Assembly (NCBI RefSeq): GCF_003019035.1
Contig: NZ_CP027447.1
Strand: one strand, 5' to 3'
Length of the DNA: 64,000 nt
From: Escherichia coli
Lineage (GTDB): Bacteria; Pseudomonadota; Gammaproteobacteria; Enterobacterales; Enterobacteriaceae
Shown: piece by piece, positions 8,557 through 59,462 of the stretch
Position numbering within the stretch: the stretch's first letter is position 1
Layout of the letters: the number at the start of each line of letters is the position of its first letter
Translations under genes and position numbers: made by a program
Notes under the pieces: generated by a model
The model's input: the letters and a program-made list of their open reading frames with translations, nothing else
What the model was told of the DNA's origin: nothing
The model's database searches: none

Positions 8557-8737
8557 AAGAAATCCTTTCTTAGAGAATTATTGAGGTCCGGTATCATACC
8601 GATTGCAATAATGAAATAAGAGCAAACGAAGAAACTTTCAGAATTAGGCCCGGCGGCGCAGAAAATTTTGCTATTCGCCTCGCAAGAACGGAGAGCCGTC
8701 GATTGACACTAAGGGCGGAGTGACATAATTTCAGGAG

Positions 8738-8886
8738 TGAGGGTTAGGGAGAGGTTTCCCCCTCCCCCTGGTGTTCTTAGTAAGCCTGGAAGCTAATCAC
8801 TAAGAGTATCACCAGTATGATGACGTGCTTCATCATAACCCTTTCCTTATTAAAAGCCCTCTTCTCCGGGAGAGGGTTTCCCGTTT
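8738..8886 (+). ncRNA. sibA: Sib antitoxin sRNA, unit 1 (SibA-like); ends approximate
   Basis: Sigma70-like promoter TTGACA(8703-8708)-N17-TAATTT(8726-8731); the transcript is fully antisense to ibs unit 1; hairpin at about 8856-8877 followed by TTTCCCGTTT. Confidence 0.65.
8777..8836 (-). CDS. ibsA: Ibs type I toxin, 19 aa (MMKHVIILVILLVISFQAY)
   Basis: Hand translation of the minus strand; it is a hydrophobic peptide that matches my memory of IbsA. Confidence 0.8.
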   Translation of the reverse strand: MMKHVIILVILLVISFQAY

Positions 8887-9072
8887 CAGCGTCCCGCTGA
8901 AATCGTCGGCTTACCTCCTTTCGCCCTGAATGCAGTCTATCGCTAACGCGTGAACAAAATAGTTTCCTCTGTGATTATTCCGTAACGACTCGCAAAGAAT
9001 ATTTGCTGGCAGGATCGCAGACTACAAAGCCTGCGGATTGACAATCTTATCGTGAAGGCATAATTTCAGGAG

Positions 9073-9216
9073 TGAGGGTAGAGCGGGGTTTCCCCCGCCC
9101 TGGTAGTCTTAGTAAGCGGGGAAGCTTATGACTAAGAGCACCACGATGATGAGTATCTTCATCATGACCCTTTCCTTATTTATGGCCCCTTCCTCGGGAG
9201 GGGCTTTCCCGTTTCA
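9073..9216 (+). ncRNA. sibB: Sib antitoxin sRNA, unit 2 (SibB-like); ends approximate
   Basis: Promoter TTGACA-N17-TAATTT(9061-9066), antisense to ibs unit 2, GC hairpin at about 9184-9204 plus T-rich tail. Confidence 0.65.
9109..9165 (-). CDS. ibsB: Ibs type I toxin, 18 aa (MMKILIIVVLLVISFPAY)
   Basis: Hand translation of the minus strand; IbsB-like. Confidence 0.75.
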   Translation of the reverse strand: MMKILIIVVLLVISFPAY

Positions 9217-9400
9217 GCGTCCCGCTGAAATCGTCGGCTTACCTCCTTCTGTCCTGTATGCAGTCTATCGCTGACTTGCGGATAAAATAGTTTCCAATGT
9301 GATTATTGCGTAACGTCTCGCAAAGAATATTTGCTGGCAGGATCGCAGACTGCAAAGCCTGCAGATTGACAATATTATCGTGAAGGCATACTTTCAGGAG

Positions 9401-9543
9401 TGAGGGTAGAGCGGGGTTTCCCCCGCCCTGGTAGTCTTAGTAAGCCGGGAAGCTTATGACTAAGAGCACCACGATGATGATCCACTTCATCATGACCCTT
9501 TCCTTATTTAAGGCCCCTTCCTCGGGAGGGGCTTTCCCGTTTC
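9401..9543 (+). ncRNA. Sib antitoxin sRNA, unit 3 (additional copy); ends approximate
   Basis: Promoter TTGACA-N17-TACTTT(9389-9394), antisense to ibs unit 3, GC hairpin at about 9512-9532 plus T-rich tail. Confidence 0.6.
9437..9493 (-). CDS. Ibs type I toxin, 18 aa (MMKWIIIVVLLVISFPAY), third copy
   Basis: Hand translation of the minus strand; IbsB-like variant with W at position 4. Confidence 0.7.
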   Translation of the reverse strand: MMKWIIIVVLLVISFPAY

Positions 9544-23533: not shown

Positions 23534-23617
23534 TTCATTTCGATTATTTTTCCCGGATGGAAAATTCTTAGAAACCGATCACATACAGCTGCATTTATTA
23601 AGGTTATCATCCGTTTC

Positions 23618-23704
23618 GCTGAAAAACATAACCCATAAAATGCTAGCTGTACCAGGAACCACCTCCTTAGCCTGTGTAATCTCCCTTACACGGGCTTATT
23701 TTTT
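23618..23704 (+). ncRNA. cyaR: CyaR (RyeE) Hfq-dependent sRNA
   Basis: Sequence GCTGAAAAACATAACCCATAAAATGCTAGCTGTACCAGGAACCACCTCCTTAGCCTGTGTAATCTCCCTTACACGGGCTTATTTTTT matches CyaR as I remember it, including the terminator hairpin and U-tail. Confidence 0.85.
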
Positions 23705-39840: not shown

Positions 39841-39980
39841 AGTTTGCTCCTGCCATAACGTGAAGAAGCAATGACCTGGTGGTCCGTGACTTCCCTACGC
39901 TGGCATTATCCAGATCAGGTGATACGGGTATTTCTCAGCCTTTACGCAGAAGGGCACCCCGAGTCGTTTGGTTGCGATAA
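39841..39980 (-). ncRNA. TPP (thi-box) riboswitch in thiM leader
   Basis: Minus strand contains GGGGTGCCCTTCTGCGTAAAGGCTGAGAAATACCCGTATCACCTGATCTGGATAATGCCAGCGTAGGGAA, the conserved TPP aptamer with its CUGAGA motif. Confidence 0.9.
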
Positions 39981-54842: not shown

Positions 54843-57800
54843 ATGGACAAGGAATTACCGTGGCTGGCGGATAACGCGCAACTGGAACTGAAATATAAAA
54901 AGGGTAAAACACCACTCAGCCATCGCAATTGGCCGGGTGAACCGGTGCCTGTTATCACTGAAAGCATCATCCAGACACTGGGTGATGAATTGCTACACAT
55001 TGCTGAGAAGAAAAAAAACATTGTCTGGCGTTATGATAATTTTTCACTGGAGTGGCAGTCCGCCATCACGCAGGCCATCAACTTGATCGGCGAACACAAA
55101 CCCTCAATCCCGGCCCGGACAATGGCGGCGCTAGCCTGTATCGCGCAAAATGATAGCCAACAGTTACTCGACGAAATCGTCCAACAAGAGGGACTGGAAT
55201 ATGCGACTGAAGTGGTGATTGCACGCCAGTTTATTGTACGGTGTTATGAGAGTGATCCTCTGGTAGTAACATTGCAGTATCAGAAGGAGGACTATGGCTA
55301 TGGCTATGGCTATGGCTATGGCTATGGCTATGGTTATCGCTCAGAAACCTATAACGAATTCGATCTCCGACTGCGTAAGCATCTCTCTCTGGCAGAGGAA
55401 AGCTGCTGGCAGCGTTGCGCCGACAAACTCATTGCCGCACTGCCAGGACTACCCCAAGTTCGCCGTCCTTTTATTGCACTCATCCTCCCGGAAAAACCAG
55501 AAATCGCCAATGAGTTGGTAGGCCTTGAATGCCCGTGGACTCATTTTCATTCTAAGGAGTGGTTAAAAGTTGTTGCTACTGACCACAGGGCAGTGGGAAA
55601 ACTCGAACGCTACTGGAGCCAGGATATATTTAGCGATCGCGAAGCCAGCTACATGTCGCATGAAAACCACTTCGGCTACGCGGCCTGCGCCGCCCTTTTG
55701 CGCGAACAAGGAATTGCAGCCGTTCCACGCCTCGCGATGTATGCCCATAAAGAAGATTGCGGTAGCCTGCTGGTACAAATTAACCATCCGCAGGTCATCC
55801 GCACCCTGCTGTTAGTTGCTGATAAAAACAAACCCAGCCTGCAACGTGTGGCTAAATACAGTAAAAACTTCCCCCATGCGACGCTTGCCGCACTGGCAGA
55901 GCTTCTGGCGTTAAAAGAACCGCCTGCACGCCCTGGTTATCCAATCATCGAAGACAAAAAGCTGCCTGCACAGCAAAAAGCTCGAGATGAATACTGGCGT
56001 ACGCTGTTACAAACGCTGATGGCATCGCAGCCACAACTGGCAGAAGAGGTGATGCCGTGGTTAAGTACTCAAGCCCAGGCAGTGCTGAATAGTTATTTAT
56101 CGGCACCGCCCAAAACGGTTATTGATAGCACCGATAACATCCAAATGCCTGAAATCCTCGTTTCACCACCGTGGCGTAGTAAGAAAAAAATGACAGTTCC
56201 ACGTCTTGATTTGGCACCGTTCGAATTAACGCCGCAAGTTTACTGGCAACCAGGCGAACGAGAGAGGCTTGCCGCCACTGAGTCTGCCCGTTATTTCAGC
56301 ACGGAATCTCTTGCGGAACGCATGGAACAAAAAAGTGGACGAGTTGTATTACAGGAGCTGGGTTTTGGAGATGATGTATGGCTGTTTTTGAATTATATAC
56401 TCCCCGGAAAACTGGATGCTGCACGCAATTCACTCATTGTTCAGTGGCATTACTACCCAGGGCGGGTTGAAGAGATCATGAATGGCTGGAGCTCCCCGGA
56501 AGCTCAATTAGCAGAACAGGCGCTTCGCAACGGTCACGTAGAAGTGTTAATTAACATATGGGAAAATGACAGCTACTCACGCTATCGTCGGGAAAAGAGT
56601 ATCTGGAACCTGTATTTATTGGCGCAGTTGCCGCGTGAGATGGCTTTGACTTTCTGGCTACGTATCAATGAGAAAAAGCATCTGTCTGCGGGTGAGGACT
56701 ATTATCTCAGTATCTTCGGATTGGATGCTCTACCAGGTCTGCTGTTGGCTTTTTCACATCGTCCAAAAGAAACATTTCCATTAATTTTAAATTTCGGCGC
56801 AACAGAACTGGCCCTGCCCGTTGCCCGCGTCTGGCGACGTTTCGCGGCGCAGCGTGATCTGGCTCGCCAGTGGATTTTACATTGGCCGGAACATACAGCT
56901 ACTGCACTTATCCCTCTTGTCTTCACCAAATCCAGCGATAATAGCGAAGCTGCATTACTTGCCCTGCGTTTACTTTACGAACAGGGACATGGCGAGTTAC
57001 TGCAAACCGTGGCAAACCGCTGGCAGCGTACAGATGTGTGGCCTGCCCTGGAGCAATTACTTAAACAGAGTCCAATAGAGATTTACCCGACACGCATTCC
57101 AAAAGCCCCTGATTTCTGGCAGCCGGCAATGTGGTCCAGGCCGCGCCTTATCACGAATAATCAACCTGTTACCGATGACGCTCTGGAAATTATCGGCGAA
57201 ATGCTGTGCTTTACCCAGGGCGGACGTTTTTATAGCGGACTGGAACAACTGAAAACTTTCTGCCAGCCGCAAACGCTGGCAGCTTTTGCCTGGGATCTCT
57301 TCACCGCGTGGCAACAAGCTGGTGCTACCGCAAAAGACAACTGGGCATTTCTGGCGTTAAGTCTCTTTGGCGACGAAAGCACGGCACGGGATCTGACGAC
57401 ACAGATCCTTGCCTGGCCACAAGAGGGCAAATCTGCCCGTGCTGTCAGTGGTCTGAATATACTTACTCAGATGAATAATGATATGGCACTGATACAGCTG
57501 CATCATATATCGCAACGGGCGAAATCCCGCCCCTTACGTGATAACGCGGCGGAATTTCTTCAGGTGGTCGCAGAAAATCGTGGGCTAAGCCAGGAACAGT
57601 TAGCGGACAGATTAGTCCCAACACTGGGTCTTGATGATCCGCAGGCGTTGAGTTTTGATTTTGGTCCCCGGCAGTTTACCGTTCGCTTTGATGAAAACCT
57701 TAACCCGGTTATCTTTGATCAGCAAAACGTTCGCCAGAAAAGCGTTCCCCGGTTGCGCGCCGATGACGATCAACTGAAAGCGCCCGAGGCACTGGCCCGA

Positions 57801-58505
57801 CTAAAAGGGCTAAAAAAAGATGCCACTCAGGTGAGCAAAAACCTGCTCCCACGTCTTGAAACTGCCCTGCGCACCACCCGACGCTGGTCGCTGGCAGATT
57901 TTCATTCTCTGTTTGTTAATCATCCCTTTACCCGCCTGGTTACTCAGCGATTGATATGGGCGGTTTATCCGGCAAATGAACCGCGTCGTTTACTCAACGC
58001 CTTTCGTGTGGCCGCTGAGGGGGAGTTCTGCAATGAGCAAGATGAGCCAATTGACCTGCCTGCCGATGCTCTGATTGGCATTGCCCACCCGTTAGAAATG
58101 ACAGCAGAAATGCGCAGTGAATTTGCACAGCTTTTTGCCGATTACGAAATTATGCCGCCTTTTCGCCAGTTGACGCGGCGCACAGTGCTGCTCACGCCTG
58201 ACGAGTCAGCCAGTAATAGTTTGAATCGCTGGGAAGGTAAATCTGCTACCGTTGGGCAGCTTATGGGAATGCGATACAAAGGCTGGGAGTCAGGCTATGA
58301 GAACGCATTTGTCTATGACCTGGGCGAGTACCGGCTGGTCCTTAAGTTTTCATCCGGTTTTAACCACTACAATGTTGATAGCAAAGCGCTAATGAGCTTC
58401 CGTTCTCTTCATGTATACCGTGACAATAAATCTGTCACTTTTGCCGAACTTGATGTGTTTGATTTGAGTGAAGCGTTAAGCGCACCCGACGTCATTTTCC
58501 ATTAA
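54843..58505 (+). CDS. yehI: Large paralog of YehH lacking the WGR-like N-terminus (YehI)
   Basis: 1220-aa ORF. Shared blocks with YehH include LRLRKHLSLAEES, PEKPEIA, DLFTAWQ, LDFGPRQFTV and QLFADYE. Confidence 0.85.
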   Translation: MDKELPWLADNAQLELKYKKGKTPLSHRNWPGEPVPVITESIIQTLGDELLHIAEKKKNIVWRYDNFSLEWQSAITQAINLIGEHKPSIPARTMAALACIAQNDSQQLLDEIVQQEGLEYATEVVIARQFIVRCYESDPLVVTLQYQKEDYGYGYGYGYGYGYGYRSETYNEFDLRLRKHLSLAEESCWQRCADKLIAALPGLPQVRRPFIALILPEKPEIANELVGLECPWTHFHSKEWLKVVATDHRAVGKLERYWSQDIFSDREASYMSHENHFGYAACAALLREQGIAAVPRLAMYAHKEDCGSLLVQINHPQVIRTLLLVADKNKPSLQRVAKYSKNFPHATLAALAELLALKEPPARPGYPIIEDKKLPAQQKARDEYWRTLLQTLMASQPQLAEEVMPWLSTQAQAVLNSYLSAPPKTVIDSTDNIQMPEILVSPPWRSKKKMTVPRLDLAPFELTPQVYWQPGERERLAATESARYFSTESLAERMEQKSGRVVLQELGFGDDVWLFLNYILPGKLDAARNSLIVQWHYYPGRVEEIMNGWSSPEAQLAEQALRNGHVEVLINIWENDSYSRYRREKSIWNLYLLAQLPREMALTFWLRINEKKHLSAGEDYYLSIFGLDALPGLLLAFSHRPKETFPLILNFGATELALPVARVWRRFAAQRDLARQWILHWPEHTATALIPLVFTKSSDNSEAALLALRLLYEQGHGELLQTVANRWQRTDVWPALEQLLKQSPIEIYPTRIPKAPDFWQPAMWSRPRLITNNQPVTDDALEIIGEMLCFTQGGRFYSGLEQLKTFCQPQTLAAFAWDLFTAWQQAGATAKDNWAFLALSLFGDESTARDLTTQILAWPQEGKSARAVSGLNILTQMNNDMALIQLHHISQRAKSRPLRDNAAEFLQVVAENRGLSQEQLADRLVPTLGLDDPQALSFDFGPRQFTVRFDENLNPVIFDQQNVRQKSVPRLRADDDQLKAPEALARLKGLKKDATQVSKNLLPRLETALRTTRRWSLADFHSLFVNHPFTRLVTQRLIWAVYPANEPRRLLNAFRVAAEGEFCNEQDEPIDLPADALIGIAHPLEMTAEMRSEFAQLFADYEIMPPFRQLTRRTVLLTPDESASNSLNRWEGKSATVGQLMGMRYKGWESGYENAFVYDLGEYRLVLKFSSGFNHYNVDSKALMSFRSLHVYRDNKSVTFAELDVFDLSEALSAPDVIFH
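55293..55334 (+). repeat. Hexanucleotide microsatellite (TATGGC)6 plus TATGGT inside yehI, encoding a (Tyr-Gly)7 tract
   Basis: Seen directly; translated as DYGYGYGYGYGYGYRS. The paralog YehH has no repeat at the equivalent position. Confidence 0.9.
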
Positions 58506-58565: not shown

Positions 58566-58886
58566 ATGATCGTGCAAAAAGAGCTGGTCACTATTTACGA
58601 TTATGAGGCCCCTGTACCTGAAGAGCCGTTTTCCTTCAGACTTGAGATCCATAAATGCTCTGAATTATTTACAGGTTCCATCTACCGGCTGGAGCGATTC
58701 CGGCTACATCCAACATTTCATCAACGTGATCGAGAGGATATCGACCCGCTAATAAATGATGCGTTGATTTATATAAGAGATGAGTTTATTGATGAGCGAA
58801 AATTACGGGGCGAATCACCAGAAACGGTAATAGCCATTTTTAATCGTGAACTACAGAATATATTCAACCAAGAAATAGAAAAATAG
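58566..58886 (+). CDS. yehK: Small protein of unknown function YehK
   Basis: 106-aa ORF; AGGGG-rich upstream region; followed by a hairpin terminator. Confidence 0.75.
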   Translation: MIVQKELVTIYDYEAPVPEEPFSFRLEIHKCSELFTGSIYRLERFRLHPTFHQRDREDIDPLINDALIYIRDEFIDERKLRGESPETVIAIFNRELQNIFNQEIEK

Positions 58887-58892
58887 CTTTAT

Positions 58893-58920
58893 TAAAGGGG
58901 GGAAACGGTATTCCCCCTTA
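58893..58920. terminator. Bidirectional hairpin terminator between yehK and the convergent small toxin-like ORF
   Basis: GGGGGAA-acggta-TTCCCCC hairpin at 58898-58917. Confidence 0.55.
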
Positions 58921-58940
58921 GATGCGTTTCAATTTGCCCG

Positions 58941-59030
58941 TTACTTCAACAAATCAATCAGCCGTAACAGAGCCACTAATAACTCCAGTACGGCAATGAG
59001 CACGGTTAACTTTTGTGTCAGCGTGTCCAT
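58941..59030 (-). CDS. Unannotated 29-aa hydrophobic peptide, TisB/DinQ-like type I toxin candidate (MDTLTQKLTVLIAVLELLVALLRLIDLLK)
   Basis: Hand translation of the minus strand. AAGGAG sits 5 nt before the ATG. The product is a single amphipathic helix resembling TisB and DinQ from memory. It is below the ORF-track size cut-off. Confidence 0.55.
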   Translation of the reverse strand: MDTLTQKLTVLIAVLELLVALLRLIDLLK

Positions 59031-59211
59031 CCGCTCTCCTTATTAAGGAGCGCAACACCAGCATCTTACCCTTACACTGCCTGTCGATACTGGTTTACGT
59101 ATGTTGGACCACGATGTTGCACTCCGGATCAGGGCACTACCTGCGGCACCACCCGTCCGGTAGCCAGGACTTGAAATGGGTTCGATCCGGCGCAACGTCC
59201 CAACAGTCAGG

Positions 59212-59239
59212 ATTATAAATCTCATTATCTTAATTGCAA
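59212..59239 (-). promoter_or_regulatory. Putative sigma70 promoter for the toxin-like mRNA (-35 TTGCAA, 16-nt spacer, -10 TATAAT on the minus strand)
   Basis: Near-consensus hexamers seen directly. The -35 TTGCAA is palindromic and is shared with the divergent plus-strand promoter. Confidence 0.5.
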
Positions 59240-59262
59240 CGGGGTCCACCGATGGTTATAAT
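59234..59262 (+). promoter_or_regulatory. Putative sigma70 promoter for the plus-strand sRNA (-35 TTGCAA, 17-nt spacer, -10 TATAAT)
   Basis: Consensus -10 and near-consensus -35 with optimal spacing, about 7 nt upstream of the predicted sRNA 5' end. Confidence 0.55.
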
Positions 59263-59268
59263 TCGTTC

Positions 59269-59352
59269 GTTGGAACACGATGTTGCACAGGCCGTGGTGT
59301 TAGGCCTGAAAGTAGTAAATAAAAGAACCTGCCTCACCAGCAGGTTTTTTTA
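59269..59352 (+). ncRNA. Putative ~80-nt trans-acting antitoxin-like sRNA
   Basis: Predicted 5' end GTTGGAACACGATGTTGCAC; internal stem-loop CAGGCC-N9-GGCCTG at 59288-59308; AU-rich linker; terminator ACCTGC-ctcacca-GCAGGT plus a run of 7 T (59327-59352). Confidence 0.5.
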
Positions 59353-59462
59353 TTTACTATGATCTGCTTTCCAGATATTTTCCGCTCAAACAACTAATGC
59401 GCCAAACATTTATTGCGCGTAAAATATCGTTTATTTCATTAATACATTTCAGGGATGAATAT

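Follow-up and report, generated by a model that had tools for sequence, protein, structure and literature searches.

The yehK-yehL spacer of an Escherichia coli strain matches a single-copy zor-orz type I toxin-antitoxin locus

Introduction

The zor-orz locus of Escherichia coli was originally annotated in EDL933 as z3289/z3290, and its bioinformatic prediction has been dated to 2010 (PMC11264685). [quoted passage not shown] The toxicity of zorO and its rescue by the cognate sRNA were shown for EDL933 zorO-orzO (PMC3919570), and nearly all zor-orz experiments have been done on zorO-orzO, not on the P type. The ZorO protein localizes to the inner membrane, which it depolarizes and damages, and it needs the ALLRL segment at positions 20-24 (PMC6669753). 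The published 5′ UTR of zorO is 174 nt long, with the RBS at +164..+169 and an EAP region at +73..+102, to the 3′ end of which OrzO binds; the RBS is sequestered in the full-length mRNA and likewise in its processed form (PMC5397157).

Several described loci resemble zor-orz. The tisB-istR-1 locus follows the same regulatory logic: it too has a 29-residue toxin, an inert or poorly translated primary mRNA, and 5′ processing that opens an upstream standby region, to which an sRNA acting without Hfq binds by its 5′ end, recruiting RNase III. This comparison was drawn in PMC5397157, where it was also reported that the full-length zorO mRNA, unlike tisAB +1, is still translatable. In shoB-ohsC, a divergent trans-acting sRNA has a 5′ end complementary, over 19 nt, to the toxin 5′ UTR (PMC3919570), while the peptide and the RNAs are unrelated to those of zor-orz; no NCBIfam model matched our ShoB query. 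The dinQ-agrAB locus, located in the K-12 arsR-gor spacer, also combines a divergent sRNA (~82 nt) with a small single-helix toxin. A 5′-processed active form of the mRNA is known for dinQ. This locus, which is plasmid-borne as well (e.g., on IncX1 plasmids), differs from zor-orz in its chromosomal site and in the bodies of its sRNAs, which are unrelated to Orz outside the terminator.

Here, we analyze one stretch of E. coli DNA of 64,000 nucleotides (contig NZ_CP027447.1), hereafter the window, to which all positions refer unless stated otherwise. The initial annotation had proposed, for the spacer between yehK and yehL, an unannotated TisB/DinQ-like type I toxin controlled by a divergent trans-acting sRNA.

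Results

The spacer corresponds to a known toxin-antitoxin locus

The 576-bp spacer (58887-59462) lies between yehK (58566-58886) and yehL, which is where O157:H7 has its tandem zor-orz pair. Judging from its sequence, it almost certainly represents a single copy of the known E. coli zor-orz locus. We could show that every element is identical to its published counterpart, and could establish the pairing between the RNAs, its covariation, and the predicted folds of the leader. All four features that had been read from the sequence alone proved real, at the coordinates given for them.

On the minus strand, the 29-codon ORF with its stop codon (58941..59030, read from 59030) was confirmed in the list of open reading frames. 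It encodes MDTLTQKLTVLIAVLELLVALLRLIDLLK, and AAGGAG at 59041-59036 stands 5 nt before its ATG. The peptide is identical at 29/29 residues to the ZorO sequence printed in PMC6669753 (Methods 4.3), and public protein collections list exactly this peptide under the name "Small toxic protein ZorO" (ZORO_ECO57). The Zor toxin class comprises peptides of 29 residues that are either ZorO or its variants ZorP (T3S) and ZorQ (A20S). The ALLRL segment is present at positions 20-24 of the window peptide.

The proposal that this toxin was unknown did not hold. The locus is covered by Rfam (RF02083, OrzO-P) and UniProt (ZORO_ECO57 and ZORP_ECO57) as well as by the papers cited above, and is absent only from RefSeq/PGAP. 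It looked unannotated because RefSeq annotates nothing in the spacer: in E. coli SCU-301, whose sequence is identical, the flanking yehK and yehL are annotated with no gene between them, and none of the E. coli records inspected has an annotation for either the toxin or the sRNA. When the 29-residue peptide was scanned against NCBIfam, it matched no family at all, NCBI having no ZorO model. The lack of such a model explains the missing RefSeq annotation, and it is no argument against the identity of the peptide as ZorO. Also considered was the simple reading of the spacer as a mere promoter region of yehL, which was rejected given its full match to zor-orz. The locus found here is an already known system in its common single-pair configuration; it is not new.

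The single pair appears to be a mosaic of two O157:H7 copies

The yehK-yehL spacer of O157:H7 is 1,240 bp long and contains two tandem pairs, whereas the window contains one. The window and O157:H7 agree in promoters, leader length (174/175 nt), SD hairpin, length of the sRNA and terminator. In O157:H7, zorO-orzO (T3 in the peptide, V1 = GAA) adjoins yehK, and zorP-orzP (S3, V1 = ACG) adjoins yehL. Over its whole length, the window unit is closer to O157 zorP-orzP (96.2%) than to zorO-orzO (87.4%). The sRNA (97.7% to orzP vs. 79.5% to orzO) and the leader (97.1% to the zorP type vs. 90.3% to the zorO type) follow the same order, while for the ORF it is reversed, with 98.9% nucleotide identity to zorO and 94.4% to zorP. 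The diagnostic sites are distributed accordingly: all six between 58905 and 59024 are of the zorO type, and nearly all from 59108 onwards are of the zorP-orzP type.

The window unit therefore appears, in the one three-way alignment on which its origin was judged, to be a recombinant that joins a zorO-like ORF and terminator to a zorP-orzP-like leader, promoters and sRNA. The simplest reading would be a homologous deletion between tandem copies, with a crossover in the identical stretch 59025-59107. The same combination of a single-copy P-type seed and a T3 peptide was found in one O25:H4 strain.

According to a published survey, 25% of E. coli carry one pair, 42% carry two, ~30% carry orz only and 3% carry neither gene (PMC11264685). 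Our own count covered 5426 complete E. coli genomes, in 5232 of which a match was found; 3392 genomes had the full spacer, ~1840 had the orz half and 194 had no match. These counts agree with the published figures for pair number. The orz-only spacer, as in E. coli AS19 (306 bp, L003 1484-1789) and in K-12-like strains, retains both promoters and an intact orz, while the ORF and the zor leader past ~30 nt are gone. It corresponds to the orphan antitoxin described as OrzPmg, for which no target is known in those strains.

Plasmid DNA was searched as well. At E≤1e-5, only true zor copies were retrieved, matches to dinQ leaders appearing only at E≤1. Several of the "plasmid" records with zor-orz are ~4.8-4.9 Mb in size (e.g., NZ_OL790696.1 and NZ_CP141089.1) and are probably chromosomes mislabelled in PLSDB. 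Another two records, each 180,962 bp in length, match zor over its full length at 96% and could be genuine copies on plasmids.

Promoters, leader and 3′ end of the zor transcript

Two divergent promoters were located by a promoter scan, each matching the consensus at 10 of 12 positions. As had been read from the letters, they have a common palindromic −35 element, TTGCAA at 59234-59239, and a TATAAT −10 element on both strands. The predicted zor promoter occupies 59212..59239 on the minus strand (−35 at 59239-59234, −10 at 59217-59212), and the predicted orz promoter occupies 59234..59262 on the plus strand (−35 at 59234-59239, −10 at 59257-59262). The TTGCAA and TATAAT hexamers are found at more than 99% of zor/orz loci for both genes (PMC11264685), and the window has the same hexamers.

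If zor transcription starts at 59204, the 8th nucleotide after the −10 element that ends at 59212, the 5′ UTR (59031..59204, minus strand) would be 174 nt long. With this start, AAGGAG at 59041-59036 occupies precisely +164..+169, the position published for the RBS. In the predicted folds, this SD is paired with an anti-SD, CUCCUU, at 59050-59045, forming a small hairpin (59036..59050, minus strand) in the full-length leader as well as in the processed one. [quoted passage not shown] A conserved GGAGTG/AG motif has been described in the EAP region (PMC11264685), and in the window GGAGUG is present at 59125-59120 on the minus strand.

The first 28 nt of the zor mRNA (59177..59204, minus strand) are predicted, from the fold and the literature, to pair with the EAP region: in the full-length leader fold, nt 1-22 pair with +73..+102. 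In the centroid of the delta-28 form, whose processing site was taken from the zorO literature (PMC5397157) and applied to the window by homology, the target region is largely open and the SD hairpin is kept. The leader folds modestly better than shuffled sequences, with z = −2.0 for the full-length form and −1.4 for delta-28. The predicted folds match published probing, and they are consistent with the published model without being an independent proof of it.

Downstream of the ORF, a putative zor 3′ hairpin or terminator (GGGGGAA...UUUCCCC, 7-bp stem) is located at 58898..58917 on the minus strand, in a region shared with the end of yehK. Its fold is no better than that of shuffles (z = −0.5), which is weak evidence for a terminator. 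A zor mRNA ending at this hairpin would be ~310 nt long, as is the published northern band. The published zorO transcripts are of ~310 and ~280 nt, and both sizes are accounted for if transcription starts at 59204, processing moves the 5′ end 28 nt downstream, and the RNA ends shortly past the hairpin at 58917-58898. The transcript sizes predicted beforehand from the sequence, ~310 nt for the mRNA and ~80 nt for the sRNA, thus agree with the published data.

Orz sRNA and its pairing with the leader

The antitoxin gene is assigned to 59269..59353 on the plus strand and to the OrzP type, with V1 = ACG at 59277-59279. The Rfam match to RF02083, with 98.9 bits (gathering score, 60), covered the full model (1-76) at 59276-59351 of the plus strand. 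In the predicted fold (−30 kcal/mol, z = −3.5), a single-stranded 5′ end that contains the seed (59269-59288) is followed by an internal hairpin (59288-59308) and a strong terminator stem (59326-59346) with its U-tract. The fold and the Rfam match both bear out the ~80-nt plus-strand transcript that had been expected to start at about 59269 and to carry a stem-loop upstream of a strong terminator. A second OrzO-P match on the minus strand (59321-59431, 27.9 bits) is the palindromic terminator read backwards, and matches to Thr and Trp leaders in the Rfam scan were far under their gathering scores.

The 5′ end at 59269 was set by the register of published mutants. The name "OrzO 8(1)9" places V1 at sRNA positions 9-11, and "OrzP V1 5(1)12" is reproduced exactly only when the sRNA begins with the G of GTTGG. 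A second occurrence of the 20-mer at 59269-59288, differing at one position, lies at 59103-59122, and these two sites are its only matches in the 64 kb at up to three mismatches, with 0.00 expected by chance. The 5′ end of the sRNA is complementary to the toxin leader, as had been recognized. In this register, which RNAduplex confirmed, the window pairing is 6(1)13, i.e., 19 pairs of 20 with a single A.G mismatch at seed position 7, and the same pairing is seen for zorP and OrzP of O157. In zorO-orzO, on which the published experiments were done, the seed is 18 nt long and one of its pairs is G.U. Since RNAduplex of the full-length sRNA and mRNA ignores intramolecular structure and over-extends the duplex, it was used for the seed register only, and our conclusions on pairing rest on explicit counts of seed and target pairs.

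The published minimum for pairing is 15 pairs if they are continuous, or 17 if they are interrupted by one mismatch (PMC3919570). The longest continuous run in the window is 13 pairs, short of 15, while the total of 19 exceeds the 17 of the discontinuous rule. Because only 13 pairs are continuous, repression in the P type rests on the discontinuous-pairing rule.

We compared the seed and its target over nine loci, which fall into four seed types, O, P, APEC-O1 type and GPEC type. The types are distinguished by positions 6 and 9-11, where sRNA and target both change, and 19 of 20 pairs are retained in every full locus compared. The seed and its leader target thus co-vary across E. coli loci, and this covariation is direct comparative support for the sRNA-leader interaction. 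The mechanistic reading given to the locus at the outset, a type I pair with a divergent trans-acting sRNA whose 5′ end acts on the toxin leader, was right.

These data also bear on whether the locus could be a decaying remnant, with a toxin no longer properly expressed or controlled, on its way to the orz-only state of K-12. In about one-third of E. coli, zor is lost and only orz remains, the window has one pair instead of two, and its seed is mismatched to the target at position 7. However, the ORF, start codon, SD, both promoters, leader length and terminator are all intact, as in functional copies. The 6(1)13 mismatch is found in every P-type locus examined, including that of O157:H7, and is therefore a conserved feature and not new damage. 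In addition, 99.8% of Orz sRNAs in full loci satisfy the pairing requirement (PMC11264685). We therefore regard decay as highly improbable and continue to treat the locus as an intact zor-orz pair.

Comparison with TisB and DinQ

A further alternative, and the one closest to the initial annotation, is that the spacer encodes a new, unannotated SOS-induced toxin of the TisB or DinQ family together with an IstR-1- or AgrB-like sRNA. The architecture is indeed the same, with a divergent sRNA, a 5′ seed and a long structured leader. ZorO aligns locally with DinQ at 10/19 residues (E = 0.001 in a single-comparison BLASTP), and alignment of the zor leader to dinQ leaders gave z = 26 for the plasmid leader and 6.8 for that of K-12, relative to 1000 dinucleotide shuffles.

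Against this, the peptide is exactly ZorO, which is already named and characterized. The NCBIfam equivalog models for TisB and DinQ gave ZorO no match even at E≤10, yet they recognize their own toxins: TisB scored 69.6 and 59.9 bits with the TisB models (NF011340 and TIGR04459), and DinQ scored 54 bits with the DinQ models (NF041472 and NF041473). The score with its own models served to validate the TisB query used here, and the K-12 DinQ query was confirmed from the genome. BLASTP of ZorO against TisB produced no alignment, so that the toxins of zor and tisB have no alignable similarity. A search of 58887-59462 for a LexA box (CTGT-N8-ACAG, up to one mismatch) retrieved none, whereas one is present upstream of K-12 dinQ (L011 1183-1198). 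Finally, the sRNA is Rfam OrzO-P and has almost nothing in common with AgrA/AgrB bar the terminator.

Membership in the TisB or DinQ family is thus refuted by the profile models, by BLASTP against TisB and by the missing LexA box, and there is hardly any chance that the locus is a new SOS toxin of this kind. Of the likeness that had been proposed, the part concerning TisB falls away, and the analogy to DinQ has some substance, in the 10/19 residues and the homology of the leaders.

The relationship between zor-orz, as identified here, and dinQ-agrAB is seen in the leader. A 113-nt segment that is 72-73% identical to nt 28-140 of the zor leader is present on ~93 plasmids (best database E 2e-5), and at the one plasmid locus inspected this leader-like segment lies 35 nt upstream of an annotated DinQ ORF. 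Plasmid matches were also seen in the 2024 survey (PMC11264685), where no relationship was proposed. In Salmonella IncX1 p12-6334.1 (L010 501-734) and in K-12 dinQ (L011 906-1263), the conserved blocks start at the zor delta-28 site. The zor and dinQ leaders share the blocks AAGUCCUGG, GGUGGUGC, GGAGUG and GACAGGCAGUG and the anti-SD/SD hairpin, and the AgrB target is at a position homologous to that of the Orz target. As aligned, nt 28-169 of the zor leader are clearly homologous to the dinQ leaders.

The shared leader blocks suggest common ancestry of zor-orz and dinQ-agrAB. We lean towards a history in which the two diverged from a single ancestral type I locus, which would account for the shared leader scaffold, the GGAGUG standby-like motif, the SD hairpin, the target position and the related toxin helix. 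The zor branch would have lost LexA control, and single-pair zor-orz would have arisen by homologous deletion between tandem zorO/zorP copies.

Discussion

Combining the features of the window with the zorO-orzO work, one can propose how the locus would operate. Two genes with one palindromic −35 element would be transcribed divergently, yielding a ~310-nt zor mRNA from the minus strand and an Orz sRNA of ~85 nt from the plus strand. The mRNA would consist of a 174-nt structured leader followed by the coding sequence of a 29-residue inner-membrane toxin. By analogy to zorO-orzO, the nascent full-length leader would hide both the SD and the EAP region upstream of it, and the primary mRNA would be poorly translated. 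Loss of the first 28 nt would then open the EAP region, where ribosomes are presumed to stand by, and translation would rise, again as in zorO-orzO. [quoted passage not shown] If the zorO-orzO results apply, this pairing, independently of Hfq, would block translation and trigger RNase III-dependent decay of the mRNA. The toxin, when overproduced, would depolarize and damage the inner membrane, as described in the literature.

In the window strain, the processing of the leader, the dependence on RNase III and the toxicity of the peptide are expected by homology. On the strength of sequence identity, the window allele is predicted to be toxic and to be rescued by its own Orz. Its regulatory half being P-type, expectations on processing and on the need for RNase III are extrapolated from experiments on zorO-orzO.

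As RefSeq/PGAP leaves both genes out, scans based on annotation will keep rediscovering zor-orz. The case has value as a control, in that a reading of the raw sequence rebuilt a type I locus including transcript sizes and seed pairing. Two minor points are new and mainly for specialists in type I toxin-antitoxin systems: the mosaic composition of single-pair loci, and the statistics in favor of homologous leaders in zor and dinQ.

Other features of the window

The whole-window Rfam scan also retrieved three tandem matches to SIB_RNA (RF00113) on the plus strand, at 8703-8851, 9038-9180 and 9366-9508, with scores of 141-150 bits, which mark an ibs/sib type I toxin-antitoxin cluster. K-12 has two copies (sibA and sibB) at this locus, so that the window strain appears to carry an extra repeat. 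The CyaR sRNA (23616-23701, plus strand, 100.7 bits) and a TPP riboswitch (39875-39971, minus strand, 72 bits), retrieved in the same scan, are ordinary and expected features of E. coli.

In the vicinity of the spacer, Gly-Tyr dipeptides follow one another in the translation of yehI (54843-58505, plus strand), as YGYGYGYGYGYGYGY. Several other strains have a yehI, yehK or yehM that is flagged as frameshifted or has internal stops, which suggests decay of the yeh cluster in some lineages.
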